Below, in pieces: positions 11,426-26,711 of a stretch of 64,000 nucleotides of DNA. Origin of the DNA: a phage; NCBI GenBank assembly GCA_024875585.1, contig GCA_024875585.1_4107.1; one strand, 5' to 3'. The translations under genes were made by a program, and so were the position numbers. The notes below the pieces were generated by a model that had not been told where the DNA came from, ran no database searches, and saw only the letters and a list, made by a program, of their open reading frames with translations. The first letter of the stretch is position 1, and each line of letters starts with the position of its first letter.

Positions 11426-11767
11426 ATGTGTGAGTTTTTTGAATCTAATATAATGCTTGGTATTACATTGATATACATGTATGTATTCTTGTTTTATCAT
11501 TCAATTGTAATTAGTCTTTGGTATTTTAAAAGGAAAATGGTTTTTAAATTATATTCATATGATAATGTATTCTTAGTTATATATAGTATCATACAAGGTG
11601 GGTTTGTTCTATTTGGTATTATGACGTATGTGATTTATAGATTACAAATTGATAACACACCATACATTACACAATATGTTGTGTTTTCAGGACTAATCGT
11701 ATGGTTATTGGTGTGTATAATTTATTTTATAATTAAAGCTCGTGATAAAATTAAAGGGGATTTCTAA
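11426..11767 (+). CDS. family D small multi-pass membrane protein
   Basis: MCEFFESNIMLGITLIYM..; tail ARDKIKGDF; first of 8 tandem paralogs. Confidence 0.8.
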   Translation: MCEFFESNIMLGITLIYMYVFLFYHSIVISLWYFKRKMVFKLYSYDNVFLVIYSIIQGGFVLFGIMTYVIYRLQIDNTPYITQYVVFSGLIVWLLVCIIYFIIKARDKIKGDF

Positions 11768-12105
11768 TGTTAGAATTTTTTAAATCAGATGTGATGCTTA
11801 GTATTACATTGATTTATATGTTTGGTTTTTTATTTTATCATCTACTAGTTGTAGTTCTATGGTATTTTAAAAAGAAAATAGTTTTCAAACTGTATCCACC
11901 TAGTAACATTTTATTGTTTCTTTACACACTTATTCAAGGTATGTTTGTTATTATTGGTGTTATCACACACTTAATCTATTGTTATAATCCACATTTAAAA
12001 TCAATAACACAATATATTGTTTTCTTTGGGTTGTTCATTTGGTTAATTATATACTTAATTGAACTCATTATTCATAGTAGAGAAAAAATTCGTGGAGACT
12101 TCTAA
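11767..12105 (+). CDS. family D small multi-pass membrane protein
   Basis: MLEFFKSDVMLSITLIYM..; tail SREKIRGDF; TAATG junction. Confidence 0.8.
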   Translation: MLEFFKSDVMLSITLIYMFGFLFYHLLVVVLWYFKKKIVFKLYPPSNILLFLYTLIQGMFVIIGVITHLIYCYNPHLKSITQYIVFFGLFIWLIIYLIELIIHSREKIRGDF

Positions 12106-12452
12106 TGTTTGAAGCTTATCTTGATTTTTTAAGAAATAGTCCAGTTGCACATTCACTTGCAGGAATTATACTAACAACTTATATCACATTTTGGGGAGTT
12201 ATGTTTCTAGGATGGTATTTTAAACGACAATTCTATAAACGTAATGGCGAACATTTTATGAATTCTGTCATTAATCAATCGTTGTTTGCATCAACATTTA
12301 TAGCATCTATTTTAGCCATACTCACAGGAAAGGTTCTGCCAGCGTATTCAGTAACTTACGGAACACTTTGGATGATATGTTTAACTTTTATATTGACCAT
12401 TAAAATTTGTTGTGTTATGATTGAACTTCGAAATAAGATACCGGAGGAATGA
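12105..12452 (+). CDS. family D small multi-pass membrane protein
   Basis: tail LRNKIPEE; TAATG junction. Confidence 0.8.
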   Translation: MFEAYLDFLRNSPVAHSLAGIILTTYITFWGVMFLGWYFKRQFYKRNGEHFMNSVINQSLFASTFIASILAILTGKVLPAYSVTYGTLWMICLTFILTIKICCVMIELRNKIPEE

Positions 12453-12787
12453 TGGAGTATTTTATTGATTTACTGCCGTGGTATATGAAAGTGAGTATTT
12501 TATACTATATTATTAGTACTGGATTCTACTTCCTGATGTGGTTTTTTAAACGACCAATTTCAGTGTACATTGCTAATAACATGCTGCAATTAAAATTACA
12601 CGCATGGTTTTTTATGGCGATGTTTATGCCTATTATTCACTACTCAATGATTAGTATAGGTTTACGTTCTAATGGTGAACCAATTGTATTAGTATTCTAT
12701 TGGGGTTCAACTATAGTATATTTCGGTTTGCTATTGTTCCCCATCATTCATAAATTACGTGCTAAAGTTCCTGATGCGAGGTATTAA
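12449..12787 (+). CDS. family D small multi-pass membrane protein
   Basis: tail LRAKVPDARY; ATGA overlap. Confidence 0.8.
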   Translation: MMEYFIDLLPWYMKVSILYYIISTGFYFLMWFFKRPISVYIANNMLQLKLHAWFFMAMFMPIIHYSMISIGLRSNGEPIVLVFYWGSTIVYFGLLLFPIIHKLRAKVPDARY

Positions 12788-13101
12788 TGGATATCGTAAC
12801 ATTGATCTACACGTTGTATTCATTCTATTTCATTATGTGTTGGGTTGGATTTTTATTTGTACTCAAGATGTTTGATTATGTTGAAAAACAGATAAAAGAT
12901 TTTTGTATTCCTTTTATCGGTTCAACCATTATTAGTGTTTCTTGTGTTTATTTTTTAGTGTTTGATCCACCAGATAACACTGCGATGATTGACTTCATGT
13001 TACTACCAACCACTGTAATTTTTTTATGTAGTCTGATGCCACCTATTAGTCGTGGATTAACTGAATTTAGACGCAAACAAAAGCGTAAAAGAGGGATGTA
13101 A
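12787..13101 (+). CDS. family D small multi-pass membrane protein
   Basis: tail EFRRKQKRKRGM; TAATG junction. Confidence 0.75.
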   Translation: MDIVTLIYTLYSFYFIMCWVGFLFVLKMFDYVEKQIKDFCIPFIGSTIISVSCVYFLVFDPPDNTAMIDFMLLPTTVIFLCSLMPPISRGLTEFRRKQKRKRGM

Positions 13102-13469
13102 TGGAAATTGCTCTTATTATCTTAACTGCTATGCTGTTTATTAGTACATTGGTTATAATTGGCAAATTCTTTTGTGTATCATTTTTAGAAACGGTATACG
13201 ATGAAATTGCTGATGATTATGAATTACACGCCGGATTTTTCATTACGTATTGGCTTAGTTTATTTTGTCTAGTCATTGTTTGGATTTTACATATCTTTAA
13301 ATGGGGTATGGTGGACGGTGATCCTATCATGGCAATTATTGTTCTAGTGTTTGGTATCCTAGGTGGTGCAGTACATAATATGATGGTTATTTGGCAAACT
13401 GTTCAATGTGTATTGGTTCCTTATTTCGAAAAAATGCACAGTACAATTAAAAAACGTAAACGAGGTTAG
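13101..13469 (+). CDS. family D small multi-pass membrane protein
   Basis: tail HSTIKKRKRG; TAATG junction. Confidence 0.75.
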   Translation: MEIALIILTAMLFISTLVIIGKFFCVSFLETVYDEIADDYELHAGFFITYWLSLFCLVIVWILHIFKWGMVDGDPIMAIIVLVFGILGGAVHNMMVIWQTVQCVLVPYFEKMHSTIKKRKRG

Positions 13470-13470
13470 T

Positions 13471-13833
13471 ATGAACGGGATTGAATTATCTTTCATTGGT
13501 CAAATACTAGTAATGGTGAATACTTTCTTTTTCTCACTTATTGCATTAATGTGCATTGGAAAGTATTTTCATAAACAACCATTCTCAAATTTATATGATG
13601 TAATAAAAAAGAAATATAGTCCTGCACATAGTGTACTTATTTGCAGTTTCAATTTTGGTTTTGTTGTATTAATAATTGGATTGTTAACATCAACGTCAAA
13701 TGTAATGATCTTCGGTCTTATGATCTGTTCATTGGTATTAGCAGTAATTGTATGTTGTTTAGTACTGCACCTTGTAGTACTATTATATATAAAGCTCGTT
13801 GAAATCCATCAACGTTTAGGTATGAGGAAATAA
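13471..13833 (+). CDS. family D small multi-pass membrane protein
   Basis: ATG 13471 right after previous stop (track start 13408 overlaps); tail HQRLGMRK. Confidence 0.75.
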   Translation: MNGIELSFIGQILVMVNTFFFSLIALMCIGKYFHKQPFSNLYDVIKKKYSPAHSVLICSFNFGFVVLIIGLLTSTSNVMIFGLMICSLVLAVIVCCLVLHLVVLLYIKLVEIHQRLGMRK

Positions 13834-13834
13834 T

Positions 13835-14206
13835 ATGAGTTACCGTGAGATATTTTCCATTATTTCAATTATTATGTTCAGTGCTGGGACATTGGTGTGG
13901 GTATTATATTTTTTCTGTGTATCACCAGTGTATAATATGTTATGTAATATTAAATCAAGTTCTGGATATATGACTTTTATGATCTTTATGGGATATTATT
14001 GTCTAAGCATTTTAGGTGTTGTTTTGGTTGTTATATTTGATGTAGGGCCAAATAAGGATGGTCTGAAAATGTATGAGTTAATAACTATGTTTGGGTGTAT
14101 GATACCAACTGCACTAATGTTTGTAGCTATTGGTGCTGGATGTATAAAGTTATACAATTATTTAAAATCCATTCATCATTCCATTCATAATAAACGTATG
14201 TCATAA
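13835..14206 (+). CDS. family D small multi-pass membrane protein
   Basis: tail HHSIHNKRMS; last of the array; hairpin ccagtact-gaat-agtactgg follows (14214-14233). Confidence 0.75.
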   Translation: MSYREIFSIISIIMFSAGTLVWVLYFFCVSPVYNMLCNIKSSSGYMTFMIFMGYYCLSILGVVLVVIFDVGPNKDGLKMYELITMFGCMIPTALMFVAIGAGCIKLYNYLKSIHHSIHNKRMS

Positions 14207-14247
14207 TAAAAATCCAGTACTGAATAGTACTGGACTAATAAGGAGTT

Positions 14248-14898
14248 ATGATGAAATCAAAATTAGGTTTGTTTTATGGAAACTACTTCATTAAACAGCG
14301 TAAATTCATAAAAAAATACTTCTCCACAGAGAAATCTAGTCCTATAATTTTTAAAAGACCAAAATATAATTTTTACTTAGCAGGTGCTAAACAGTCTAAG
14401 AAATTCATTACATTTTTAAATAAAAACAAAATTAAAGCTTCTTATGTTGAAACTAGAAAGAACTCATCGATAATTCCTGGTGATTTCATTGAATACGGAT
14501 GTTTCAATATTAAGTACAATGATAGCACATACTGTATGGATATTGATTGCAATACATCAAATCTTTTTAACATTGTAATAAATCCATCGAAACAATATAA
14601 TGTTTATGGTGATTCAATTATCAAATTAATAAAAAACAAAGATTGGTTTGATTTTGAAATAAATGTTTTAGATGAAAATTATGATGAAGTTCCAGTTAAC
14701 CCTGAAATATGTGATATATTAAACAGTTTAAAAGGTAGTAGCTACAATATACCATCTGATTTAATGTTTCAGTACTCTTTAATACATAAAGATATTGAAC
14801 ATTATATTGTGTGTGCTAAAATCTTGAATTATCTGTATGATGAATTTAAAATGAGTTCTAAAATAACAGCATATACTCTTTATAATATTTCTATATAA
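14248..14898 (+). CDS. hypothetical protein (216 aa), distant family B member
   Basis: SD aaggag; C-terminal SDLMFQYSLIHKD matches the family B xxxFQxSL(I/V)xxD core. Confidence 0.75.
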   Translation: MMKSKLGLFYGNYFIKQRKFIKKYFSTEKSSPIIFKRPKYNFYLAGAKQSKKFITFLNKNKIKASYVETRKNSSIIPGDFIEYGCFNIKYNDSTYCMDIDCNTSNLFNIVINPSKQYNVYGDSIIKLIKNKDWFDFEINVLDENYDEVPVNPEICDILNSLKGSSYNIPSDLMFQYSLIHKDIEHYIVCAKILNYLYDEFKMSSKITAYTLYNISI

Positions 14899-14908
14899 TT
14901 TAAAATAT

Positions 14909-14936
14909 TAAAGCCAGTACGAGAGCACTGGCTTTA
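14909..14936. terminator. bidirectional terminator between convergent genes
   Basis: taaagccagt-acgagagc-actggcttta, A/T runs on both sides. Confidence 0.6.
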
Positions 14937-14939
14937 ATA

Positions 14940-16085
14940 TTATTTTTTCCAAGGAAGTAACGAAGTTGGAATCTTGATAGGTATATTTGATGCAACAACA
15001 TCAGGAAAATTTGCATCTCCACAAACATACAAATTATCGATTTCGTCTATCAATAATGTATAGTTGTAACTTCTACAAAAACCACTTAAGACTCTTCCCT
15101 CTAATGCAGATAAATTCATTTCAGTGAATTGAGTGATATATGTTTCATTTGAACCAACACCACATTGACCATTAGCATTTATACCACAAGTAAGCAATTT
15201 ATTATTGTTTTGAATTACACATGATGGTCCAGCAAGGTTCGTACCTAGTTCACCTACAACATTAACTTCACCTTTTAATGATAAATTTGGGATCACTGTA
15301 CTCATTGGGACTCGAGATGTATTTCCGACACCTGCTTGCCCTGAGCCATTAGTGGATGCTACTTTAACAGTACCGTCATTAAGAAAAATATAAGATGTTT
15401 CGATTGTATTAACTGCTTGAGTAGCTGATGTTATTGACGTATCCTGTTTGAATTTAAGTACATTTGTCGTTGTTGAACCAGAGATAAATGTAGCACCTGC
15501 GTACCAATATGTTCCATCCTGGAGTACTAAACCAGTACTTCTAATTGAACACCCAGCACTTCGAACATTTTCTATATGACTATATGTAAAGGTTGATACG
15601 ATTGAAGATTCACCATTACCGAACACCCCACCAGTACCTGCACCACAGAAAAACCATTTACCGTTTTTCAAAAATACACGCATACAAGCAGAAATAACCA
15701 CACTATCAATATCACTTGCAGTTACACCAAAATCGGTAAAGAAATGAGTTATATCAATCCAATTACCACCAGTATTTGATGGGAGATGTGGAATTACAAC
15801 TCTAGTCCCTGTGTACCAGATTGTATCATCATCTTTAATAACAAGCGTACCTTGAACACCACCCCAATACCTGGTTACATTAGTATTAACAAGTGTCCAC
15901 TCATTAGATGATTCCGTTGAGCCATTACCACCTTGACCATATGATGATGAACCGCACCAGTATAAATTGCCATTTTTATTTAAATAAAATTTTGCATCAG
16001 CCGAACATTGTAATCTGTATTTGAATACAGTTTTTGGTGCTGGTGCAATATTTGCATACTTAATCATTCTTCCAAAAGGTAACAT
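14940..16085 (-). CDS. RCC1-like repeat (beta-propeller) protein, paralog 1
   Basis: N-terminus MLPFGRMIKYAN; repeats LYWCGSSSYGQGGNGS, WFFCGAGTGGVFGNGES, LLTCGINANGQCGVGSNE. Confidence 0.75.
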   Translation of the reverse strand: MLPFGRMIKYANIAPAPKTVFKYRLQCSADAKFYLNKNGNLYWCGSSSYGQGGNGSTESSNEWTLVNTNVTRYWGGVQGTLVIKDDDTIWYTGTRVVIPHLPSNTGGNWIDITHFFTDFGVTASDIDSVVISACMRVFLKNGKWFFCGAGTGGVFGNGESSIVSTFTYSHIENVRSAGCSIRSTGLVLQDGTYWYAGATFISGSTTTNVLKFKQDTSITSATQAVNTIETSYIFLNDGTVKVASTNGSGQAGVGNTSRVPMSTVIPNLSLKGEVNVVGELGTNLAGPSCVIQNNNKLLTCGINANGQCGVGSNETYITQFTEMNLSALEGRVLSGFCRSYNYTLLIDEIDNLYVCGDANFPDVVASNIPIKIPTSLLPWKK

Positions 16086-16151
16086 ATTTTCCTCCTTTAT
16101 TCATTATACTGTATTTAACCCAATTAAGAAAAGCCAGTATCAAGTACTGGT
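16086..16151 (-). promoter_or_regulatory. conserved upstream cassette (SD + TATAAT) plus terminator hairpin of the gene above
   Basis: minus-strand reading: ccagtacttgatactgg hairpin, ...cagTATAATgaataaaggaggaaaatATG; -10 at 16103-16108. Confidence 0.5.
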
Positions 16152-16157
16152 ATTTTA

Positions 16158-17507
16158 TTATTGTAATGGAATTTCAGTGAGTGTTTTATATGTACTTCCG
16201 TTATACACCCCTCTCCAATATACTTTACCATCAGTACTAACCACTAATAATCCATATGTTGTAAACCCAAGAGTACCACCAACATACATAGCATCTTTGA
16301 TTCTAATACCAATGTCTTCATATGTAAATGACGCGACTGCACCCGCTTGCCATGACGGACTAGCGTAGTAATCACTATAAACACCATGTGCTTTATATAT
16401 TGATGTTGTTCCTGGTTCAAAAATTACAGTTCCACAGTAGTTCATTCGTATTTTAGTACTGGATGAAGTTGGTACATTTATACCCACGTCATCTTTTATC
16501 CCTGTGGTTAGAACGTTAAAACCCCCCGCCACACGGTTGACATCATTCTCACCGATTGAATACATACCAACGTTGTAGCCCATATAATACACACTAGAAC
16601 TTCCATTCCAGAAAGAAAAACCACCACCATTACCACAGCGATATAGTTGTGAATTTGAGCAGTACATCATACCTTCGTTTGTTGCATCAAATTCATCTGC
16701 TGTTCCGATCACAGCCACTGTAGTCCATGTTTTAATCACTTGGTTTGCACTAGCGGGTTTTTGAATACCATATCGTATATTATATCCTTTACCGACTATT
16801 GTACCATCTTCTAATTTGGCATAAAGTACAGGTCTATTACCAACAAAATACATATTATTGTGTGACATGTCTATTGTACGTCTTAATGAAACTACTTTTT
16901 TTGTCAATTGATTATCTTTAGTAAAAGACGTAAAGTAGTAATCCGATGTTGAATTGTTTATTAAACCTTGTATTGACAACCCCATATACCAGATTTCTCC
17001 CTTACTATTCAAAGATGCCAAAATACAACTATATTTTGAAGTGTATGTTGGGTTTACTGAAGTTGCTGGTCCTTTGTCATATCCACCACAGAATACCATC
17101 TCCACAACTTCACCTACGTTAGCAAAATAAGAAGATACATTGATAAAACCATTTGTTATAAAAGGTGCTGTATTTATACTTGAATGTGTGAATATCCCAT
17201 TTGCATATACACCACAAAAATGATATGAACCATCATTATCTTGGACTATTATTCCATTTGATAGTAACCAAAAATTGTTTACATTTTTTCTTACTAATTC
17301 GATTCCTGCCCCATTAGTTGGCGTTATACCAAAAGAAACATATTTTGTTTGACCAATTCCATATAAATTTCCATTTGATGCTAATATTGCACCAAACCAA
17401 TTACCACCACCATTCTTGTTATGACCCATACCTATAGAATCAAATTTCTTAACAGTAGGAGCTTGTACTTTGTTCCCATAATTCACCATTCTTCCAAAAG
17501 GTAACAT
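16158..17507 (-). CDS. RCC1-like repeat protein, paralog 2 (most diverged)
   Basis: N-terminus MLPFGRMVNYGN; LYGIGQTKYVSFG, LYRCGNGGGFSFWNGSS. Confidence 0.65.
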   Translation of the reverse strand: MLPFGRMVNYGNKVQAPTVKKFDSIGMGHNKNGGGNWFGAILASNGNLYGIGQTKYVSFGITPTNGAGIELVRKNVNNFWLLSNGIIVQDNDGSYHFCGVYANGIFTHSSINTAPFITNGFINVSSYFANVGEVVEMVFCGGYDKGPATSVNPTYTSKYSCILASLNSKGEIWYMGLSIQGLINNSTSDYYFTSFTKDNQLTKKVVSLRRTIDMSHNNMYFVGNRPVLYAKLEDGTIVGKGYNIRYGIQKPASANQVIKTWTTVAVIGTADEFDATNEGMMYCSNSQLYRCGNGGGFSFWNGSSSVYYMGYNVGMYSIGENDVNRVAGGFNVLTTGIKDDVGINVPTSSSTKIRMNYCGTVIFEPGTTSIYKAHGVYSDYYASPSWQAGAVASFTYEDIGIRIKDAMYVGGTLGFTTYGLLVVSTDGKVYWRGVYNGSTYKTLTEIPLQ

Positions 17508-17573
17508 ATTTCCCTCCTTTATTCATTATACTATATTTAATACTAAAAGAAAAAGCCAGTATCAAGTACTGGC
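17508..17573 (-). promoter_or_regulatory. conserved upstream cassette + terminator hairpin
   Basis: ...aaatatagTATAATgaataaaggagggaaatATG (minus); hairpin gccagtatcaagtactggc 17555-17573. Confidence 0.5.
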
Positions 17574-17579
17574 ATTATG

Positions 17580-18689
17580 TCATTTTGGTAAATTAATTTT
17601 AGTAAAGACTGCAACATCCTCGATTGCACCAGGAATTGCGTAATACGATCCAGTACTATATACATCTCCGTCTTTGGTTAATATTGATGTTAAACCATCA
17701 CTAAAAAGAACATCCCTAATCTCACTAACTTCAACGGGTAATTGTAAATTAGTAGCACTATATATTGCACCAGTTTGAGAATTGTTTAATCCCAAACCAC
17801 GGTTCGCCCCAACACCCTTCTGATATGTACTAGTAATTACCATTTGTGTAGCAGTATTTAAGGCAGGTGAATTCGTCATAAACAACGGTGAACTATTAGG
17901 CAAAGTACTTGCAGGAACTGCACGAAATGTAGTTGTATCTGAACTAAGAAAGTTTGGCGTTTGACCACATACGAAATATGATGTACCATTATAGTAATTA
18001 AATGCATTACCACCAATGACTGCATCGATTACACCAGAGCTACGTAATCCCCACGTGTTAATTTGTGTTCGGTTCCCCGTGCCATGCTGACCCCTGTCAT
18101 TCCACCCAGAACTATATAACTTATTATCTAATGTAATATACATACTGTCATTTGCATTCGTCATTACTTTACGCACATTAGTAGCACATTGAGTTAATGT
18201 GTAAATTGATGATGAACCAATACCTAAAGCACCACGATATCCATTAGCTCCTGCACCATAGAGTACTGAACTAGTGCTAAGTACAAATATTAAACCATAC
18301 GAACATACAATATTAGCAATTTCACTCACTGGTATAGCACTGGTAAACCAATTAGTTCTTTCAACTAATACTGTGCTGTAAGAAGTAGTTGTAGACGATG
18401 TGAACCAATATGTTTCCCCTGATGTCCATATAGTATTATCATTTTTAATAATAACAAGTGCACGATCACCTACGAAAAAATTAGAAACATCTGCACTTAC
18501 TAATATCCATGAAGATACCGTGTTTTTATTACCATTTCCAGATTCACCACCTTGATTTCTACCTATGTAATATAAATCATGTGAATCAGTTAATAAGAAT
18601 TGACCCTGTGTAGATGCACCAACTTTAATTATATTTTTAGGACCAGGTACAATATTCCCATAATCAAACATTCTTACAAAAGGTAACAT
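17580..18689 (-). CDS. RCC1-like repeat protein, paralog 3
   Basis: start at MLPFVRMFDYGN (18689) as in paralogs; LYYIGRNQGGESGNGNK, LYGAGANGYRGALGIGSS, LYSSGWNDRGQHGTGNRT. Confidence 0.75.
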   Translation of the reverse strand: MLPFVRMFDYGNIVPGPKNIIKVGASTQGQFLLTDSHDLYYIGRNQGGESGNGNKNTVSSWILVSADVSNFFVGDRALVIIKNDNTIWTSGETYWFTSSTTTSYSTVLVERTNWFTSAIPVSEIANIVCSYGLIFVLSTSSVLYGAGANGYRGALGIGSSSIYTLTQCATNVRKVMTNANDSMYITLDNKLYSSGWNDRGQHGTGNRTQINTWGLRSSGVIDAVIGGNAFNYYNGTSYFVCGQTPNFLSSDTTTFRAVPASTLPNSSPLFMTNSPALNTATQMVITSTYQKGVGANRGLGLNNSQTGAIYSATNLQLPVEVSEIRDVLFSDGLTSILTKDGDVYSTGSYYAIPGAIEDVAVFTKINLPK

Positions 18690-18760
18690 AACTAAAATCT
18701 CCATATAATAATTATAATGTATTTACAAAAAAATACCAGTACGTATTTCAGTACTGGTAT
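18690..18760 (-). promoter_or_regulatory. upstream cassette + terminator hairpin
   Basis: minus reading gtaaatacatTATAATtattatatggagattttagttATG; hairpin ataccagtac-gtatttca-gtactggtat 18734-18760. Confidence 0.45.
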
Positions 18761-18763
18761 CAT

Positions 18764-19945
18764 TTATGGTAAAATGATAGATTGTAACGAACTCATACCC
18801 AATGCTGGAACACTAGCCTGTGGTGCTGGAGAATTCAATTTTGGTGATGAAACCGCATATGACATTCCTGAACCCAAATCTGGATCAAAAACTACAGCAC
18901 AATAATTCCCACTATATATAAGTCCATTCTTGTATCCTTGTGCACTTTGAATGCATTTCGTGAACGTACCAATATCTGTCGTGGCATTTATTAAGTTCCT
19001 CCCACGATAACCGCAGGTGTATATGAAATTATCATCGCCTATGTACATACTAGAATCCCCAGAAGAACTACATAGATACGACATATAAGCACGCATGTTT
19101 TTAGGAGCAACTGACAATGTACCTGCATAGAATTTATTATTCGAACCCGTAATATCACCATCACCCAATGCACCAAAACTTCCCCAGCCAGTACCGTAAT
19201 ATCTCTTATCACTCAAAAATATAATACAGTTGTTATTACACATCTTGATTTGATATATCAATGAAGGATCAACCCCAGGGAATGATTCAGTGAATGTTAG
19301 AACAGCCGGATCAGTACTAGCATTACATTGATGATATGTATTAGTACCAGCGGACAAGATTGTTCCATTAGCTAACAGAATTCTCGCAGTACCAGTACCA
19401 GCAGTACAAGCAACTGCACTTCCTGCACTTCCGGTGTATATTTGTCTGAAAGTAAAGAAACCAACAGTTTTACTTCCCTGCCCACTCCAACCAGTATTAT
19501 CAACTCCACACGCCCATACTGAACCATCTTGCATGATCATCATTACACCAAAGCGTTCTATTGAAATATAAACAATCTTCGTTGTATCAACTGCACTAAA
19601 TCTAGAAGTTATATCAGTCCATACCTTAACACTTACCGCCGTCGCACTGGAAGTAGGATCTTCACCAGCTATCATTATCCTCCCATTGTTAGTAAGATAC
19701 ATTGTCTGACTATAACCAGTACTACAAAACTTAACACTATCAGTCTCTGGAACTTTTAACCACTCGTTGTAACGTGTTACGTTAGTGTTATTACCTAACT
19801 GATAATAGTTATTCATCCCAGATACATATAACACACCATCCTTTATTAAACTATAAGTCGCACTATAGTCACTACAGGTATAACGTGTACCCACAGGTCG
19901 CTCAACGACGTTCCCGTACTTAACCATTCTCCCAAAAGGTAACAT
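18764..19945 (-). CDS. RCC1-like repeat protein, paralog 4
   Basis: MLPFGRMVKYGN; LYVSGMNNYYQLGNNTN, VWACGVDNTGWSGQGSK, YYGTGWGSFGALGDGD. Confidence 0.75.
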   Translation of the reverse strand: MLPFGRMVKYGNVVERPVGTRYTCSDYSATYSLIKDGVLYVSGMNNYYQLGNNTNVTRYNEWLKVPETDSVKFCSTGYSQTMYLTNNGRIMIAGEDPTSSATAVSVKVWTDITSRFSAVDTTKIVYISIERFGVMMIMQDGSVWACGVDNTGWSGQGSKTVGFFTFRQIYTGSAGSAVACTAGTGTARILLANGTILSAGTNTYHQCNASTDPAVLTFTESFPGVDPSLIYQIKMCNNNCIIFLSDKRYYGTGWGSFGALGDGDITGSNNKFYAGTLSVAPKNMRAYMSYLCSSSGDSSMYIGDDNFIYTCGYRGRNLINATTDIGTFTKCIQSAQGYKNGLIYSGNYCAVVFDPDLGSGMSYAVSSPKLNSPAPQASVPALGMSSLQSIILP

Positions 19946-20011
19946 ATTTTCCTCCTTTATTCATTATACTATATTTAATACAAAAAGAAATGCCAGTATC
20001 AAGTACTGGCA
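19946..20011 (-). promoter_or_regulatory. conserved upstream cassette + terminator hairpin
   Basis: ...aaatatagTATAATgaataaaggaggaaaatATG (minus); hairpin tgccagtatcaagtactggca 19991-20011. Confidence 0.5.
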
Positions 20012-20018
20012 TATTAAT

Positions 20019-21167
20019 TCATTGTATAAATGACATATCTACTTCTGTATAATTAAGAACGTTCTGTCCAGAAATACCACCCATTACTACTATTGCAAGG
20101 CCACAATAATATAATTTTCCAGTATCCGTAAGTATAAGTGATCCAGATGGACTGCGTACCAAATCACACGAACTATTAAAAGAAGTATAAGAAGGAGTAT
20201 AGGAGTACTGATTATTATTATTACCAACACCTAATTGCCCAAACCCATTCGATCCAGAAGCATATAGAACTTCATCTGCTTTGACAATATGTGATGCCAT
20301 GTTACCAACACAAGTATATAGAGTATAAACTCCTGAACTCAATAATGTCGGAGTTTTATATTGTATATCTGTAGATGTAGAAGTACCACCTGTACCAAAT
20401 TCGTTCCCATATTGTGCACCGAACTGTTTACCACAAGCGTACAAATTATTATCCGATTTGATAAAAAATGTACTCTGATAACTTACATTAAAATCTATAA
20501 CATCCGAAGAAATCATCGTCACCCCAGTAATAGAAGTTTGATTACCCGTGCCCAACTGGTAGTAATAGTTAAAACCACAACCCCATAAAGTATTATCTTC
20601 TCGCAAATAAATGTTACCAACTGCCTTTTTAACCGAAGTTATAGTATCTACTCTTTTGAATGTGTTAAAAGAATTAATGTTTGTACCATCACCAAATGAT
20701 GATATGTTCGATATATTGTTAACTCCACAACAATACAATGTACCATCTTTTGTTATCAAATTCACCTTCATATCATAAAAACTACTCATGTATTTTATAT
20801 CAGAAACATTAACACCACTTGATGTTATCCACGTAGTACAGTCCGTCCACAAAGTTTTTCTATCAGTTACACCAGTGAATGCCTTCGTGTTACCAGTGAT
20901 AAAAACTTTTCCAGTACCTTTCTCTTCATACAATTGACAATCACTACTGTTATCTTCCAATAGAACTCGTTTAACATTCTCCGCACAAAGAATAAATTTA
21001 CTCGATGCTACACCTGTACCAGTACCCCAATTCGTCGCAGAAGATGCATACAACTTATCAGTATAAGTATCATGAAGATACATAGAATCACTGGAATATA
21101 TTTTAAAACGCCCTTCTTTCTCAGGTATAATATTCCCGTACTTAACCATTCTCCCAAAAGGTAACAT
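20019..21167 (-). CDS. RCC1-like repeat protein, paralog 5
   Basis: MLPFGRMVKYGN; LWGCGFNYYYQLGTGNQT, LYACGKQFGAQYGNEFGTG, LYASGSNGFGQLGVGNNN. Confidence 0.8.
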   Translation of the reverse strand: MLPFGRMVKYGNIIPEKEGRFKIYSSDSMYLHDTYTDKLYASSATNWGTGTGVASSKFILCAENVKRVLLEDNSSDCQLYEEKGTGKVFITGNTKAFTGVTDRKTLWTDCTTWITSSGVNVSDIKYMSSFYDMKVNLITKDGTLYCCGVNNISNISSFGDGTNINSFNTFKRVDTITSVKKAVGNIYLREDNTLWGCGFNYYYQLGTGNQTSITGVTMISSDVIDFNVSYQSTFFIKSDNNLYACGKQFGAQYGNEFGTGGTSTSTDIQYKTPTLLSSGVYTLYTCVGNMASHIVKADEVLYASGSNGFGQLGVGNNNNQYSYTPSYTSFNSSCDLVRSPSGSLILTDTGKLYYCGLAIVVMGGISGQNVLNYTEVDMSFIQ

Positions 21168-21200
21168 ATCCCCTCCTTATTCATTATATCATATTTACCC
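21168..21200 (-). promoter_or_regulatory. conserved upstream cassette
   Basis: minus reading gggtaaatatgaTATAATgaataaggaggggatATG. Confidence 0.45.
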
Positions 21201-21209
21201 AAAAAACAC

Positions 21210-21238
21210 TTGACACCCTTTCAGTACTGTTGTACGAT
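21210..21238 (+). promoter_or_regulatory. sigma70-type promoter of the family C array (divergent from RCC1 island)
   Basis: TTGACA(21210-15)-17nt-TACGAT(21233-38); spacer contains cagtactg. Confidence 0.55.
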
Positions 21239-21263
21239 AGAAGGAATATTAGGAGAACTACAC

Positions 21264-21491
21264 ATGACAAATACCCTTAAGTACTACCTCAATACTCTGC
21301 CCGACCTAGAGTACGGGAAGTTTCTCGCAGATAGTTCGTGGCTGATTGAGCTAAAAACACATAACAGCCCTGGATGCACCCTTATGATGAACAATGCAAT
21401 TGATACCCTTATAGTGAGTATTTTACATAGCAATATCTACGAGGATAACAATAAACAATTAACAAAAATCTTAGTACTGCTATCTCTATGA
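21264..21491 (+). CDS. family C small protein (diverged member)
   Basis: ATG 21264 after aggag; LKYYLNTL.., MNNAIDTLI.., tail ILVLLSL. Confidence 0.65.
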   Translation: MTNTLKYYLNTLPDLEYGKFLADSSWLIELKTHNSPGCTLMMNNAIDTLIVSILHSNIYEDNNKQLTKILVLLSL

Positions 21492-21700
21492 ACACTATGA
21501 GCACTGAACAGTTCTACATCAATGCACTACCAACTAAAAGTCTTCAAGAAAGCTTACTGTATACACAAAAGAATTTTAAAAACTTCAAACGTTGCCCTAA
21601 ACTACTGAACTCGTACAGGAATAATATTATAAGAAATGTTTTACAAGGAGAAGAAAGTATGCAATACTATCACATCCTTATCCTTATATTGGAGTACTAA
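21488..21700 (+). CDS. family C small protein
   Basis: ATGA overlap; EQFYINAL.., tail ILILILEY. Confidence 0.65.
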   Translation: MNTMSTEQFYINALPTKSLQESLLYTQKNFKNFKRCPKLLNSYRNNIIRNVLQGEESMQYYHILILILEY

Positions 21701-21701
21701 T

Positions 21702-21911
21702 ATGAATACTGAACATAAAGAATTCTACACCAAATACCTCAGTAACGAAGAACAATTGTTTCTAAGAAGTGTATCACCTGTAAGTACCAATACTCAATTC
21801 GGTAGAGATTGCTTTAATAATTGTATACGTAGTACCCTAGAAGCTATCGAATACAATAACAAAAATATTATGTACTCAGGTTTAATAGGACTAATATTCT
21901 TCTATGAATAA
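21702..21911 (+). CDS. family C small protein
   Basis: MNTEHKEFYTKYL.., FNNCIRSTLEAI, tail LIGLIFFYE. Confidence 0.7.
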   Translation: MNTEHKEFYTKYLSNEEQLFLRSVSPVSTNTQFGRDCFNNCIRSTLEAIEYNNKNIMYSGLIGLIFFYE

Positions 21912-22098
21912 TCATAAAGATTTCTATGGTAGTAAACTACACAAACATGAACAGCTATCATTCTCTTTAGCACCACCTATGAGAAAGGATAATCTATATT
22001 ATAATTACGATTTCAGGATGGCGACACGTTATGCAATAGAACATCAGTTCCCTGAAACTAAGTACCGCTCTATCCTGAACCTCATCTTTAAGTTCTAA
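21904..22098 (+). CDS. family C small protein
   Basis: MNNHKDFYGSKL.., tail ILNLIFKF. Confidence 0.7.
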   Translation: MNNHKDFYGSKLHKHEQLSFSLAPPMRKDNLYYNYDFRMATRYAIEHQFPETKYRSILNLIFKF

Positions 22099-22145
22099 AA
22101 ACCGCACCAGGGTCCGAGTACTTTAACATAGTAAGGCTAATTACA

Positions 22146-22331
22146 ATGAATCACATAAGCTACTACTACCAACAACTATCCGACAGAGACAAGTACAGCC
22201 ACAATTCCCATGTATGGTACTACAAACGCGGCAGTATAAGAGACAAACAACATTACTTCTGTATTTCTATTAAAGAAGCACTAACAACTAAGTACACGTA
22301 CAGAGCAGTACTTAAACTAATCTCTATCTAA
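22146..22331 (+). CDS. family C small protein
   Basis: MNHISYYYQQL.., tail VLKLISI. Confidence 0.6.
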   Translation: MNHISYYYQQLSDRDKYSHNSHVWYYKRGSIRDKQHYFCISIKEALTTKYTYRAVLKLISI

Positions 22332-22339
22332 GGAATACT

Positions 22340-22519
22340 ATGCAAGAATTCTATATAGAACATATAACCATAAAAGACCGTTTCATGTACGACACCTTCG
22401 TGAAATACTACAAACTGGGAACAAAAAGTACTAAAAATATAAATCTCAATAGCTGCATTCATTCTGCACTAACAAAAGAAAATCCCTTCAGGGAAATCCT
22501 TGCACTTGCATCTGTATAA
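22340..22519 (+). CDS. family C small protein (59 aa; below ORF-track cutoff)
   Basis: MQEFYIEHI...NSCIHSALTKEN...ILALASV; SD aagga. Confidence 0.6.
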   Translation: MQEFYIEHITIKDRFMYDTFVKYYKLGTKSTKNINLNSCIHSALTKENPFREILALASV

Positions 22520-22529
22520 AGGAATTCAA

Positions 22530-23189
22530 ATGAAACTTAATCCACACAGTAAACAATACCTTAAGCACTTTAAATACCTCAACAGTATTCAAGCAGAATC
22601 AGTTACATCATCTTATACGTATCACCCGAATATACTAAAGAAACGAAATAAAAAGAAAAAATCCAGACCTGTTCTCGTATCTAAGAACCTCAAATCGTAC
22701 TTGAAGAAAAATAATATAGCTCTTGCTTTTATTAGTATCTATAATACTGATTTAAAAGTATTGAGTACTAATACCAGCACAAAAGCACTAAAGAATGCAT
22801 CTATCTATATACACATGGATAATATCCCGTGCACTATAATTCTATCTTTCGGGAATGTATACTTCTTCGGGAATTGTAATAGCACCCATGATATCAGTAC
22901 TGCACAATTCCAAATCGGAGATATGTACTGCATGGGTTCAGAAAAAATACACGATAACATGCACTTCTTCCAAAAGCAACGTACTAACGAAACTGATACA
23001 GTACTGCAATTCCTCAAAGAATTACAAAACAAAGAATTATCCGAGGAAGAAGAATTCATGTACAGTACTGTAATCGATAATCCAGGACTCTATAAAAACG
23101 CGTACAAACTAACAAAACATGTACAGGAACTTATCAGTACTGATAAGAAATTCCATCACCTCATTACGTATATTTCAAACTATGTATAA
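22530..23189 (+). CDS. hypothetical protein (219 aa) embedded in family C array; family B-like core
   Basis: ATG 22530 after aaagga; LSEEEEFMYSTVIDN resembles family B LSDESLFQYSTMYDN (Q replaced by M). Confidence 0.7.
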   Translation: MKLNPHSKQYLKHFKYLNSIQAESVTSSYTYHPNILKKRNKKKKSRPVLVSKNLKSYLKKNNIALAFISIYNTDLKVLSTNTSTKALKNASIYIHMDNIPCTIILSFGNVYFFGNCNSTHDISTAQFQIGDMYCMGSEKIHDNMHFFQKQRTNETDTVLQFLKELQNKELSEEEEFMYSTVIDNPGLYKNAYKLTKHVQELISTDKKFHHLITYISNYV

Positions 23190-23364
23190 AGAATTCTACA
23201 AAGATAAAATCCCAATGCATCTACAACACCATATACCAAACGTTGCATTGGGCATAAAAGATCACGCAAAGATAATGTTCCAACAATGTACTAAGTACAC
23301 GCTCATATACGATGATAATCCATATATGCTGTACTACGTAGTAATGCTAACATTCAGGTACTAA
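23182..23364 (+). CDS. family C small protein
   Basis: MYKEFYKDKI.., tail VVMLTFRY. Confidence 0.7.
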   Translation: MYKEFYKDKIPMHLQHHIPNVALGIKDHAKIMFQQCTKYTLIYDDNPYMLYYVVMLTFRY

Positions 23365-23365
23365 T

Positions 23366-23545
23366 ATGCACAAATATAAAGAATTCTACCTCTCGTACCT
23401 TAATTCCGATATAGTAACATCCAATACCTTCAGTACTAAAATTATCTATAATGAAGTAATGAAAGAATGTATTAAAGGTGCTATTAACCCTAAAGATACG
23501 TATGACTTGTACTATGCAGTACTAACCCTTGTTTTCACGAAATAA
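23366..23545 (+). CDS. family C small protein (59 aa; below ORF-track cutoff)
   Basis: MHKYKEFYLSYL...MKECIKGAINPK...VLTLVFTK; ggtactaatATG junction. Confidence 0.6.
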   Translation: MHKYKEFYLSYLNSDIVTSNTFSTKIIYNEVMKECIKGAINPKDTYDLYYAVLTLVFTK

Positions 23546-23553
23546 CACATAAT

Positions 23554-23742
23554 ATGAATAACCACAAAGAATACTACATACAATTTCTCCCCAGTATTTT
23601 TGAACACTACGCCAGATATAAAGTCCCCCTGGATAACGATTTGGCAGTACTGGGATTCAATCACTGCATAGAACGAAGTATAGAAAATAGTAATAGCTAT
23701 GAACAATTATATAACACTATCCTACTTATATTCAGGTACTAA
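23554..23742 (+). CDS. family C small protein
   Basis: MNNHKEYYIQFL.., FNHCIERSIENS, tail ILLIFRY. Confidence 0.75.
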   Translation: MNNHKEYYIQFLPSIFEHYARYKVPLDNDLAVLGFNHCIERSIENSNSYEQLYNTILLIFRY

Positions 23743-23743
23743 T

Positions 23744-23932
23744 ATGCACAAAGAATACTACGCAAAATATTTCCCAATGTATCTCAGAACTAATCTATTA
23801 GATAAACCTCGCGATATCAATGCACAAAACGATAAAGTGTACTTTATTATGTGCACTAAAGCATGTATACTAGATCATGACAGCTACCATCGAGTACTGT
23901 ATCATACACTGTACCTAGCTTTCGTATTCTAA
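23744..23932 (+). CDS. family C small protein
   Basis: MHKEYYAKYF.., tail LYLAFVF; ggtactaatATG junction. Confidence 0.75.
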   Translation: MHKEYYAKYFPMYLRTNLLDKPRDINAQNDKVYFIMCTKACILDHDSYHRVLYHTLYLAFVF

Positions 23933-23941
23933 GAGAACAAT

Positions 23942-24127
23942 ATGCATAAAGAATTCTACTTAAGCCATCTGGATCTAAACTCCCAAATGCTTATACCACT
24001 AATCCCAATAGATATCAAGGATAAGAAAAATACCGAACAATTCATTTACCATACACAGTGTGCGATCACCCCAAATTACATTCCATATGAATTGTACTAC
24101 ATTCTCGCCCTAATATATAGGTACTAA
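23942..24127 (+). CDS. family C small protein
   Basis: MHKEFYLSHL.., tail LALIYRY. Confidence 0.75.
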   Translation: MHKEFYLSHLDLNSQMLIPLIPIDIKDKKNTEQFIYHTQCAITPNYIPYELYYILALIYRY

Positions 24128-24128
24128 T

Positions 24129-24314
24129 ATGCATAGAGAATACTACACACAATTTGTTAAAGGGAACTACAAACATGCCGTACCCAGAACCCCTTTAAAT
24201 TCTCATGACCCAAGTACTATATTCCTGTTTAATGACGCAATACGTACAGTACTCAATACTAAAGATGAACAAGTGCAGTACGTATTCTTACTTTTACTTA
24301 TATACAGACACTAA
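24129..24314 (+). CDS. family C small protein
   Basis: MHREYYTQFV.., FNDAIRTVLNTK, tail LLLIYRH; 18-bp tandem duplication (atacagacactaactaat x2, 24302-24337) at its 3' junction. Confidence 0.75.
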   Translation: MHREYYTQFVKGNYKHAVPRTPLNSHDPSTIFLFNDAIRTVLNTKDEQVQYVFLLLLIYRH

Positions 24315-24337
24315 CTAATATACAGACACTAACTAAT

Positions 24338-24520
24338 ATGAATAAAGAACATAAAGACTTCTACATAAGAAAACTAACATTCGTCCCCGTAAGAATATAC
24401 AAAGAATGCGACCCAAGATTATACCTATGGCACTTCAATGAGTGCATAAAAGATTCTATATACCCTAAGAACTATAAAGAACAATTGTGCTCAGTACTAA
24501 CACTAGTACTATCATATTAA
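24338..24520 (+). CDS. family C small protein
   Basis: MNKEHKDFYIRKL.., FNECIKDSIYPK, tail LTLVLSY. Confidence 0.75.
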   Translation: MNKEHKDFYIRKLTFVPVRIYKECDPRLYLWHFNECIKDSIYPKNYKEQLCSVLTLVLSY

Positions 24521-24533
24521 TAGAGATAATACT

Positions 24534-24725
24534 ATGTATAAAGAGTACTATATAAGTAAACTCAAAGAGAATGAACAAGCATGGATTAAATCTATAATAG
24601 CACTTGCATTTAATAGATATGCATTTAACAGATGCACAGAGATTGCTATAGAACCTTGTCCTATTAAAGAGAAGGCACAGTACAATCAGTACTACTATAT
24701 GTTAATGCTTATATATAGAAAGTAA
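24534..24725 (+). CDS. family C small protein
   Basis: MYKEYYISKL.., FNRCTEIAIEPC, tail LMLIYRK. Confidence 0.75.
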   Translation: MYKEYYISKLKENEQAWIKSIIALAFNRYAFNRCTEIAIEPCPIKEKAQYNQYYYMLMLIYRK

Positions 24726-25381
24726 TTCAACATAGAGACAGGGGAAGCTCCGCAGGGTAAGCATTGGACAGGCTTTAACATATGTTATATATGTTAAAAT
24801 TCAGCCTGGACAAATGCGATCACTAGGATTCTCCCCAGGCTAAACCCCGTAATCATATATAAACATTTAAGTAATCATTTATAATCATTGTGGTGATCAG
24901 TAGTGATTAGTATTGAGTACTAGAGTGTAATAGAGTACAGGAATGTGCACGTTTAATCAAGAACGTAGCAGTACTGATATGCCACTAAGTAGGCAGAGGA
25001 AGTCTGCCGTACTTTGTAGTTTCCAAGCTCCTTTTCCATTTTGCAAATTACATCAAATGTAATCAAAAGTAATCACGTAATGATTAGTACTGAAATATTA
25101 GTTTCATCTTTTTTCAAATACCTTTTTACCCTTCGGGATAAATGTATTTTTATCCATTTACCTTTGGGGTAAAATCCCATTACCCCTTGAGGCTCCAGCA
25201 AAAAGTTGGAAAGTACTCCATCGTAAATATGGATCGTAAAAATTTTGGAGTACCTATGAAATAAAAGTTGGATCTTCGAAAGTTGAAATTTACGTTGGGA
25301 CATTGATGTTTTTTGGGATATAATGAGTTTTGTAGTGATGAAGTTTGTACGATTACAGTACTGAATAATGAAAGAAAGCTA

Positions 25382-25409
25382 TTGACATTATGATTCAGTA
25401 CTGTATAAT
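25382..25409 (+). promoter_or_regulatory. orphan sigma70-type promoter (no ORF downstream)
   Basis: TTGACA(25382-87)-16nt-TATAAT(25404-09) with cagtacTG extended -10. Confidence 0.55.
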
Positions 25410-25811
25410 GTTCTACATAGAGAGATGAGTTGCCGCAAACAATTCATTCACTCTACCTCCTGTCGTGAGACAGTACAGAAAAGATAGTTCCTCCTATGCG
25501 TGGTACATCTTTTTATAACCTCTTTTTTAGTAATATAAACAGTACTGGTATTAACAGAATGGTATCAGTACTGACTTTAATCTAATACATTATACCACCA
25601 GCACAAGCTGGTGGATTCCCTCTAACAGTATTCAGTACTACATGATAGTCTTCATCCTCCTAGGGTAACATAGTGAGGGCTATTGTGGGAGTACTGAATA
25701 CTCCTTTCAAAAGATAGAATAATGGTATAGTACCGACGGATTTTGGGCGTAGTTACCCTGGGTGGATTTTGGACGTAGATATGTCTAGCCCTCCAGAAGT
25801 CTGGAAGTAAA

Positions 25812-25923
25812 GATGGCTATCCATCTAGACGGCTAAACGGATAGATTTCTAGATGGCTGTATGGCTAGACGTTTGGATGGCTAAACGGCTAGATGGTTAC
25901 ACGTCTGGAAGTATAGACGGCTA
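25812..25923. repeat. 8-bp-periodic iteron-like array (about 14 units, consensus GAYGGCTA)
   Basis: gatggcta tccatcta gacggcta aacggata gatttcta gatggctg tatggcta gacgtttg gatggcta aacggcta gatggtta cacgtctg gaagtata gacggcta; flanked by gtctggaagta at 25797 and 25901. Confidence 0.7.
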
Positions 25924-26084
25924 AATCAAAATTTTTATTTTGTTTTTCCAATAGTTCCCCTACCGCGTGAGGATATTTTTCCCCGCAGTATCTGGAGTTA
26001 GATTTTTCTGAATCTGGAATCATTATCTAATAAACTGGGGGCAATGTCAACCGCCTGGATGAATATTTTTAAAAATAATCTAGT

Positions 26085-26174
26085 ACTGAATTTTGGGCGT
26101 AACTATGCACCCGGTGGGCTTGAGTCTTTCTCGACTTGATGAAACTATTATACAGTACTAGAAAAATAAAGCAA
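26085..26174 (-). ncRNA. candidate small-RNA unit (own promoter + CCCAC-core transcript)
   Basis: minus reading TTGCTT(26174-69)-16nt-TATAAT(26152-47), then agtttcatcaagtcgagaaagactcaagCCCACCGGGTGCatagttacgcccaaaattc; no ORF. Confidence 0.35.
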
Positions 26175-26261
26175 TACCCTAAACGCAAAAAAATTTAATT
26201 AATTTGCTTGCTATCCTGGGCCGTAATATGGTACTATTAGTTCAGTACTGAGAAAGTGCTT

Positions 26262-26290
26262 TAACCTGCTAGGGTGCGGGAGTGTATCCT
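26262..26290 (+). repeat. partial plus-orientation copy of the CCCAC-N-GGGTGCGGGAGTGTATC element
   Basis: ctgctAGGGTGCGGGAGTGTATCc; faces the reverse copy at 26313-26324. Confidence 0.5.
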
Positions 26291-26294
26291 TTTT

Positions 26295-26687: not shown

Positions 26688-26711
26688 TGCACATAAAGAG
26701 AGATTAAAACG

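Follow-up and report, generated by a model that had tools for sequence, protein, structure and literature searches.

Why would a phage carry, side by side, five genes whose products have strongly diverged from one another and start with nearly the same dozen residues? We address this question for a 64,000-nucleotide (nt) stretch of phage DNA (contig GCA_024875585.1_4107.1 of the GenBank assembly GCA_024875585.1), which we call the window. Its positions 14940-21200 hold an island of five minus-strand open reading frames (ORFs) of 369-449 amino acids (aa), each with its own cassette of promoter and ribosome-binding site (RBS) and its own hairpin terminator. An earlier note on this DNA had read them as paralogs with an invariant N-terminus, and all five indeed start with MLPF[G/V]RM[VIF][KND]Y[GA]N, a peptide that we refer to as the tag. 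We propose, with a probability of roughly 0.6, that the island encodes late-made, tag-addressed and interchangeable accessory modules of the virion, which are shuffled among genomes at their cassettes and for which an external ligand-binding role is favoured.

By megablast, the window DNA groups with the Asteriusvirus jumbo coliphages 121Q, PBECO4, phAPEC6, G17, ph0011 and UE-S1, and its phage is an Asteriusvirus-type jumbo phage of Escherichia coli (121Q/phAPEC6 group). The virions of these jumbo coliphages are puzzlingly "hairy", their host ranges are broad, and hundreds of their genes have no assigned function. If true, the tag and cassette reading would explain how such paralogs come to be present in virions and what makes them differ so much in number and order among near-identical phages, as well as how binding modules can change without the core structure being touched.

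The island and its five genes

All on the minus strand, the five genes are A (20019-21167, 382 aa, body type T1), B (18764-19945, 393 aa, T5), C (17580-18689, 369 aa, T2), D (16158-17507, 449 aa, T12) and E (14940-16085, 381 aa, T3), the body types being those of the array comparison described below. Genes A, B, C and E are assigned to the RCC1-like propellers, and D is a divergent member of the same family. The mutual identity of the five bodies is just 24-32%. The ORF of gene C could be extended to position 18704, where no Shine-Dalgarno sequence precedes it, while its MLPF start at 18689 has a GGAG 9 nt before the ATG. The earlier note had also considered these five to be the only minus-strand genes in the window. 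This is correct for ORFs of at least 90 aa, the remaining five minus-strand ORFs of that size all lying within stretches taken by plus-strand ORFs; smaller minus-strand genes are possible. The GC skew changes sign across the island. Megablast homology to the related genomes is patchy over the island, with 22-61% of the query covered, and the flanking DNA is more nearly collinear.

A short N-terminal tag precedes unrelated folds

The tag has the consensus M-[L/I]-P-F-x-R-h-h-x-Y-G-N (h, hydrophobic; about 12 residues) and is encoded by 36 nt at the 5' end of each gene (minus strand: A, 21132-21167, MLPFGRMVKYGN; B, 19910-19945; C, 18654-18689; D, 17472-17507; E, 16050-16085). It is present on all of the about 70 array genes from seven Asteriusvirus genomes, and it recurs on the RCC1-like genes of Salmonella phage Munch (MIPF[A/T]RIL.YGN) and on the RCC1-like gene of Cronobacter phage GAP32 (MLPFSRIIQYGN), while the RCC1-like genes of Yersinia phage fHe-Yen9-04 have a weaker form of it; in all, it is kept in at least four genera of jumbo phages. 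Across 87 genes from four genera, P3 and F4 are conserved in 100%, R6 in 93%, Y10 in 95%, G11 in 93% and N12 in 95% of the sequences. Synonymous codons are used at the conserved residues (TAC/TAT, GGG/GGA/GGT, AGA/AGG and AAT/AAC); therefore, selection acts on the tag as a peptide. Codons 1-4 are nearly fixed at the nucleotide level, with TTA in 75, CCT in 71 and TTT in 86 of the 87 genes.

Such near-fixation would be expected if the conserved 5' segment were a nucleic-acid cassette alone, its peptide being functionless, the proteins being late cytoplasmic ones and their detection in virions adventitious. The homology breakpoints within the cassette and the small number of virion peptides (both described below) are in line with this explanation as well. 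We consider it improbable, as the codons for R6, Y10, G11 and N12 vary synonymously, the tag is kept in fHe-Yen9-04, Munch and CBB where the upstream cassette is missing and the genes are translationally coupled, it is kept across genera with a genome-wide nucleotide identity of about 29% (PMC13070987), and virion detection comes from four independent proteomes, those of phAPEC6, GAP32, CBB and W70.

The bodies behind the tag differ in fold. In the structure models of B and D, about the first 17 residues are placed outside the propeller as a short helix of low confidence, with low values of the predicted local distance difference test (pLDDT); therefore, the tag is not a structural strand of the propeller, and the possibility that it acts as a "velcro" strand was ruled out. 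The tagged protein EJP2_508 is a Kelch propeller (E-value 3e-22), the tagged Munch_544, which has a Gly_rich_2 domain, and the tagged 244-aa type T9 both fall into PHROG 4474, and the tagged GAP32_002 belongs to PHROG 6011, labelled "virion structural protein". In phage CBB, from which an RCC1-like homologue is absent according to the published comparison (PMC5259590), all seven genes of the syntenic array (CBB_548-554) start with MLPF[S/P/A][R/I]..x.Y[G/A]N and encode Kelch proteins, Laminin_G_3 proteins (concanavalin A (ConA)-like lectins) and GAP32_002-like proteins. When we scanned 36 tagged ORFs against Pfam, namely 29 from IMG/VR, obtained by a degenerate scan at the DNA level, six genes of the CBB array and one of type T9 from phAPEC6, 10 were RCC1-like, 8 were Laminin_G_3 and 6 were Kelch, and the rest had no relevant match. 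The tagged ORFs added by the IMG/VR scan lie on contigs of jumbo phages that are 350-378 kb long; four long ORFs from the scan, encoding a T4-like portal protein in two cases and an intein-containing protein in the other two, were set aside as likely chance matches. The tag is a module independent of the fold behind it. The pattern claimed in the earlier note, a conserved N-terminal peptide joined to a variable body, is therefore well founded: the tag lies outside the propeller, is under selection at the amino-acid level and is also found on folds other than RCC1.

At least ten genes of CBB bear the tag. Besides the seven of the array, two lie about 5 kb away from it and may be CBB_536/537, and one, CBB_247, is isolated within a structural region. 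The latter looks like a lone insertion, whose neighbours give no clue to a docking partner.

A comparable arrangement is seen in the rV5-like phages, where three RCC1-like virion proteins of W70 all start with MLEM[L/M]NLG, and a ConA-like protein of PBES 02 starts with MNEMLMLG. Therefore, two lineages of myoviruses each put a short peptide of their own on the same kinds of fold.

RCC1-like and tagged proteins are found in virions of related phages

The association with virions that the earlier note had proposed is borne out in related phages, where published mass spectrometry has detected homologues in phAPEC6 and GAP32 as well as tagged proteins in CBB (PMC7247149, PMC5259590). Eight of the eleven RCC1-like proteins of phAPEC6 were found in purified virions, namely, gp003, 005, 006, 007, 009, 010, 549 and 551 (PMC7247149), and one of these virion-detected proteins, gp549, is the close homologue of gene A. 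GAP32 gp001 is a virion protein, several RCC1-like copies have been noted in 121Q and PBECO4, and five of the seven tagged array proteins of CBB (548, 549, 551, 552 and 553) were detected in its virions (PMC5259590). The RCC1-like proteins 237-239 of W70 were likewise detected in virions (PMC11370258).

These detections would also be accounted for if the proteins resided inside the head, the tag being a capsid-targeting sequence by which they are loaded onto the scaffold core and enter the inner body, to be ejected with the DNA, e.g., as inhibitors of host defences. The internal proteins of T4, which are otherwise diverse, have a conserved N-terminal capsid-targeting sequence as their sole common feature (PMC3012670), and the phages considered here have T4-like head genes (gp21-like protease/scaffold, portal and major capsid). 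Furthermore, an inner body is present in phAPEC6 and 121Q, and RCC1-like proteins were suggested as candidates for it by the phAPEC6 authors (PMC7247149). A hypervariable repertoire is what an arms race with host defences would favour, and a propeller can act as a tight inhibitor of another protein, as BLIP-II does.

On balance, we regard a location inside the head as unlikely, for the following reasons. Neither a motif for the prohead protease (L/I-x-E) nor a conserved glutamate was found after the tag, where positions 13-15 are I/K/V, A/V and P. The tag has no sequence similarity to the capsid-targeting sequence of T4, MKTYQEFIAE. The ConA-like lectin, Kelch and RCC1-like folds are typical extracellular binding scaffolds, and a rigid propeller of about 4.5 nm would presumably need to unfold for passage through the tail tube. 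Among 68 family members, the isoelectric points (pI) vary between 5.1 and 9.2 (median 6.3) and thus show no common character suited to embedding in DNA. Finally, the peptide counts are low for an inner body of about 19 MDa, a mass that we estimated from the published dimensions of 91 x 18 nm.

Each gene has its own late-type promoter and terminator

The earlier note had described a near-identical cassette upstream of each gene. The 18-mer TATAATGAATAAAGGAGG is found exactly upstream of B, D and E, differs by an indel upstream of A and has diverged upstream of C; it has 4 matches in the window, against 0.15 expected. The description thus applies to A, B, D and E and less well to C, whose cassette has kept the motif TAAATA-N3-TATAAT. 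This motif is exact upstream of all five genes (minus strand: A, 21183-21197; B, 19963-19977; C, 18711-18725; D, 17525-17539; E, 16103-16117) and occurs nowhere else in the window at zero mismatches. Neither inspection nor a consensus scan found a -35 element upstream of the five genes. From its absence the earlier note had tentatively inferred a middle or late class of promoter; we arrive at the late class as well, but on a different basis, since it is the TAAATA 3 nt upstream of TATAAT that is informative, and not the missing -35 element.

Several observations support a role of TAAATA in late transcription. Read by eye, the five genes match 6-7 of the 8 positions of the T4 late octamer TATAAATA, and its core TAAATA is exact in all five. 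In phAPEC6, (TA)TAAATA is found upstream of the genes for the major capsid protein, the scaffold, the prohead protease and the baseplate wedge, and of many neighbouring structural genes. A gp55-like late sigma factor is annotated in both phAPEC6 (gp237c) and CBB (CBB_244), and the putative late motif given by the authors of the CBB study is ATAAATA (PMC5259590). On both strands of the window, TAAATA occurs 29 times, against 140±12 times expected from dinucleotide-preserving shuffles, and is thus about five-fold depleted, as expected of a functional late-promoter word that is avoided elsewhere. Just two of the 111 plus-strand ORFs with a Shine-Dalgarno sequence have TAAATA within 90 nt upstream, and for one of them (93-1334), preceded by AATAAATA at 53-60, the relatives annotate a virion structural protein. 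Its counterpart in phAPEC6 may be gp035c, which has a mass of 46 kDa and was detected in virions. In the seven Asteriusvirus genomes, TAAATA lies 24-34 nt before the ATG in 61 of 69 array genes; the other eight abut the preceding gene and are probably co-transcribed with it. Taken together, these results suggest that the island promoters are of the T4-type late class, the timing of expression being read from the motif. Late expression would fit incorporation into virions.

That each gene also has its own hairpin terminator, as claimed in the earlier note, is confirmed by the predicted folding energies of -6.6 to -21 kcal/mol for all five. On the minus strand, hairpins follow A (19990-20012, -12 kcal/mol, z-score -4.0), B (18732-18761, -15 kcal/mol, z-score -5.2), C (17555-17573, -10 kcal/mol) and D (16134-16150), the last being weak (-6.6 kcal/mol, z-score -1.3); E has a bidirectional terminator together with the convergent plus-strand gene at 14248-14898 (14904-14941, both strands, -21 kcal/mol, z-score -8.8). 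Exact copies of the hairpin CCAGTACTTGATACTGG follow A, C and D, and variant hairpins follow B and E. Two intergenic hairpins outside the island resemble or recall this form: one at 14211-14236 has a full AGTACT-containing stem, CCAGTACT...AGTACTGG, like the terminators of the RCC1-like genes, and one at 13760-13782 has the shorter stem TAGTACT...AGTACTA.

Arrays are reshuffled at the conserved cassette

We compared the array in the window with those of seven other Asteriusvirus genomes, clustering the bodies at 55% identity or higher. This gave at least 27 body types, the order of which is scrambled among the arrays, and array sizes from 5 genes (the window and ph0011) to 13-14 or more (phAPEC6, WPEC3, EJP2 and fEgEco12). 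The order T1-T5-T2-T12-T3 of the window is absent from the seven other genomes, and the bodies themselves are up to 94-100% identical to homologues in UE-S1, phAPEC6, WPEC3 and ph0011. Orthologues had a neighbour of the same type in only 11 of 75 comparisons upstream and 11 of 79 downstream.

Nucleotide identity among orthologous bodies is 95-100%; it falls in a stretch from about -50 to +40, counted from the ATG, and at the other end homology stops about 90 nt beyond the stop codon, i.e., within the next cassette. The 42 pairs of close orthologues have on average an identity of 0.960 in the body, against 0.901 in the 36-nt tag and 0.854 in the 45 nt upstream (body versus tag, Wilcoxon p = 4e-5). 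In pairs of different types this order is reversed, with 0.596 in the body, 0.864 in the tag and 0.742 upstream. The homology breaks fall in the conserved cassette.

The ratio of nonsynonymous to synonymous substitution rates (dN/dS) within types has a median of about 0.23, and no pair exceeds 1; therefore, each body is maintained as a functional protein under purifying selection, and diversifying selection on the bodies at the level of whole genes was ruled out. As judged from these comparisons, the diversity of the arrays most probably stems from old paralogs that are kept and reshuffled, rather than from rapid gene-wide diversifying selection. Between genes of different types, the cassettes are 0.833 identical within the same genome and 0.789 between genomes. 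This concerted signal within genomes is modest, and gene conversion is not put forward here as the main driver.

The bodies belong to the RCC1-like propeller family

We assigned the five genes to the RCC1-like family using the Pfam profiles PF00415, PF13540 and PF25390 and the family PHROG 4219, which all of them match with E-values from 1e-111 to 8e-16. Gene A (RCC1_2, 37.7 bits; RCC1, 35 bits; RLD, E-value 7e-20; PHROG 4219, E-value 1e-111) is identical in amino-acid sequence (100%) to its homologue in UE-S1 and 96.9% identical to phAPEC6 gp549. Gene B matches RLD (E-value 3e-22), gene C matches RCC1_2 (27.9 bits) and PHROG 4219 (E-value 3e-103), and gene E matches RLD (E-value 9e-16) and PHROG 4219 (E-value 2e-95). 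With respect to the Pfam cut-offs (PF13540 and/or PF00415), A, B and C score above and E slightly under (20.9 versus 22 bits). The Pfam scan of gene D gave no match, and we count D in the family because of its match to PHROG 4219, the weakest of the five (E-value 8e-16). From residue 16 onward, D is 99.5% identical to its homologue in ph0011.

The AlphaFold2 model of gene B has a mean pLDDT of 81.5 and a predicted template modelling score (pTM) of 0.84. A Foldseek search of the PDB with this model returned the RCC1-like domain of RPGR, UVR8, RCC1 and HERC domains with E-values from 8e-20 (4jhn) to 1e-15 and template modelling (TM) scores of 0.64-0.72. The best of these matches, to RPGR, UVR8 and RCC1, have E-values of 1e-17 to 1e-20. 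The body of gene B is thus predicted to be a seven-bladed RCC1-like propeller, and the fold assignment of the earlier note stands, with the family match of all five genes beside it. The model of gene D (mean pLDDT 56.6) has blade-like strands in its N-terminal half and low confidence over residues 285-414. No solved phage structure with a homologue was found in the PDB.

The homologues in related phages are annotated as "regulator of chromosome condensation" or "DNA condensation protein", and this label, found in many records, would make the island proteins condense DNA or chromosomes in the manner of eukaryotic RCC1. The similarity in fold to RCC1 and the category of PHROG 4219, "DNA, RNA and nucleotide metabolism", agree with the label. 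We find such a function very hard to credit. The label is a name transferred from a fold family: the closest structures, those of RPGR, UVR8 and HERC domains, are of proteins that have no role on chromatin, and we know of no Ran GTPase in bacteria. The pI values are mixed, and a generic role in DNA binding was ruled out on their spread. CBB has no RCC1-like gene and carries Kelch and lectin folds behind the same tag at the same locus, and related phages have anywhere from 1 to 14 or more copies.

Relatives outside this group of phages point to a binding-module character. The bacterial homologues contain Ig-like, PKD, Big_2 and Por-secretion-tail domains and are thus surface-type proteins, and in Pseudomonas phage Littlefix an RCC1-like domain lies inside a protein annotated as a tail fibre. 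The view of the earlier note that RCC1-like proteins are uncommon in phages has to be given up: tblastn found them in 70 phage records, including those of every Asteriusvirus examined as well as of Eneladusvirus, Munch-like and rV5-like phages, they have a PHROG family of their own (PHROG 4219), and paralog arrays are already described in the literature. Few phage paralogs came from word-indexed searches of protein databases, whether the query was gene B or a profile of 10 sequences; tblastn on the phage records and reading of the arrays themselves gave more. We found no functional study of phage RCC1-like proteins in the literature searched.

Proposed role of the island

We propose that the Rak2-like jumbo phages have a hypervariable array in common, of which the island is the copy in this phage. 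Each unit would be an autonomous late gene, made up of a TAAATA core fused to TATAAT, a strong RBS, the ORF and a hairpin terminator. During virion assembly the tag would address the protein to a common docking site, so that whichever modules a phage encodes would get into the particle. The modules would be ligand-binding accessories; the unusual fibres or hairs of the virion are their most likely place of display, and there they would bind glycans or proteins of the host surface or of the environment. The cassette (terminator, promoter, RBS and tag codons) would provide the homology for recombination by which bodies are swapped, added and removed. We favour an external ligand-binding role because the tagged folds are lectin-like or propeller binding scaffolds, because the bacterial relatives are surface-type proteins and an RCC1-like domain is part of an annotated tail fibre, because the virions bear unexplained hairs on capsid and tail, and because no protease site follows the tag.

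A number of points weigh against this proposal. The association with virions is carried over to the phage in the window from homologues. In phAPEC6 the virion peptide counts are low (1-5), mass spectrometry is blind to whether a protein is outside or inside the particle, and the inner body of phAPEC6 and 121Q, for which the phAPEC6 authors proposed the RCC1-like proteins, is a radiation-sensitive structure (PMC7247149). With 12 residues, the tag is far shorter than the known anchor domains of receptor-binding proteins, and part of its conservation, given the near-fixed first four codons, could act on DNA or RNA. As to late expression, the match to the octamer TATAAATA is incomplete, and the adjacent TATAAT could instead be the -10 element of a host sigma-70 promoter.

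More tentatively, and at somewhat less than even odds, we suggest that the tag is a portable virion address of the Rak2-like jumbo phages, with an independently evolved counterpart (M-x-E-M-L-x-L-G) in the rV5-like phages. Through the tag, any of dozens of lectin-like modules, RCC1-like, Kelch and ConA-like ones among them, would be attached at a single docking site on the hairs or fibres, giving rise to a combinatorial adhesin coat shuffled by recombination. If this is true, the tag might serve to attach foreign proteins to jumbo-phage virions for display or packaging, and, if confirmed, it may offer a display or packaging handle for the engineering of therapeutic jumbo phages.

The gene family, its association with virions and the existence of arrays are already known: the gene family is annotated, virion association is published and the arrays have been noted. 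The literature that we searched reports copy number and virion detection; we did not find in it the shared tag, the cassette structure, the shuffling and the breakpoint evidence for it, or the rV5-like parallel. New here with respect to that literature are the fold-independent tag across genera, its rV5-like parallel, the late-promoter cassette and the breakpoint evidence.

Neighbouring gene series

Divergent from the island, a second tandem array occupies positions 21210-24725 on the plus strand. It consists of about 14 small ORFs of 59-93 aa, many of which are alike (23-38% mutual identity, blastp E-values 5e-4 to 1e-7) and which have in common a start of the type M(N/H)KE(F/Y)Y and a hydrophobic C-terminus; the array is also annotated in WPEC3 and fEgEco12. 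It is followed by a region with few ORFs (about 24700-26700), which may be the edge of a direct terminal repeat by synteny with fEgEco12, where a terminal repeat of 20,993 bp starts right after the small-gene array. On the other side of the island, eight successive plus-strand ORFs of 104-141 aa (11426-14206) are possibly another series of paralogs. The two of them that were inspected in translation (13408-13833 and 13835-14206) encode strongly hydrophobic proteins, and in CBB the corresponding array adjoins genes annotated as encoding putative membrane proteins.

Comparison with known systems

The closest counterparts of the island are the RCC1-like clusters of Asteriusvirus and Rak2-like phages (phAPEC6 gp549-gp010, 121Q 234-248 and GAP32 gp001), which belong to the same family, PHROG 4219. 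They have the same syntenic position as the island, with the small membrane-protein genes on one side and the small-gene array near the terminal repeat on the other; the island differs from them in being short, with five genes, and in having a type order of its own.

In phages with multiple tailspikes, such as CBA120 and G7C, and in the depolymerases of K64-1/RaK2, a conserved N-terminal anchor is joined to a variable distal domain. The island resembles such receptor-binding sets in its constant N-terminus, its exchangeable bodies and the side-by-side arrangement of the variants. It differs from them in that the anchor would be a peptide of about 12 residues and not a folded domain, and in that the bodies are predicted to be monomeric propellers or jelly rolls instead of trimeric beta-helices or fibres. 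We found no trimeric fibre or beta-helix with a folded anchor: the monomer model of gene B is one propeller after a flexible peptide of about 17 residues. For the phage RCC1-like proteins themselves, no localisation data and no genetic data on host range were found in the literature searched.

With the proteins that bear the T4 capsid-targeting sequence (IPI-III and Alt), the tagged proteins have in common that a short N-terminal peptide is the sole feature shared by unrelated virion proteins, and the loci of the T4 internal proteins are also hypervariable among related phages (PMC3012670). Unlike these, the tag has neither sequence similarity to the T4 signal nor a cleavage motif for the protease, and a position of the tagged proteins in the head is a hypothesis. 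The cargo differs too, the T4 internal proteins being small basic proteins or enzymes, and the tagged ones lectin-like or propeller scaffolds.

At the level of DNA, the island recalls the PeSL cassettes of T4-like phages, in which a terminator hairpin and a promoter lie between variable genes and which coincide with the boundaries of swaps and indels among related genomes (PMC2839356, PMC4122927). However, PeSL cassettes carry an early sigma-70 promoter, whereas the promoter of the island would be of the T4 late type, with a TAAATA core and no -35 element. Moreover, the conserved block of the island runs through the RBS into the first 12 codons, and its cassette is specific to one gene array, while PeSL cassettes are found genome-wide.

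Finally, W70_237-239 of the rV5-like phages (Vequintavirinae) are, like the island genes, tandem RCC1-like paralogs, detected in virions, with a short N-terminal peptide that is also found on a ConA-like protein. In contrast to the island, the tag of the rV5-like phages is M-L-E-M-L-N-L-G, their genes lie close together and lack promoter and terminator cassettes of their own, and the phages themselves are smaller, with genomes of about 140 kb.

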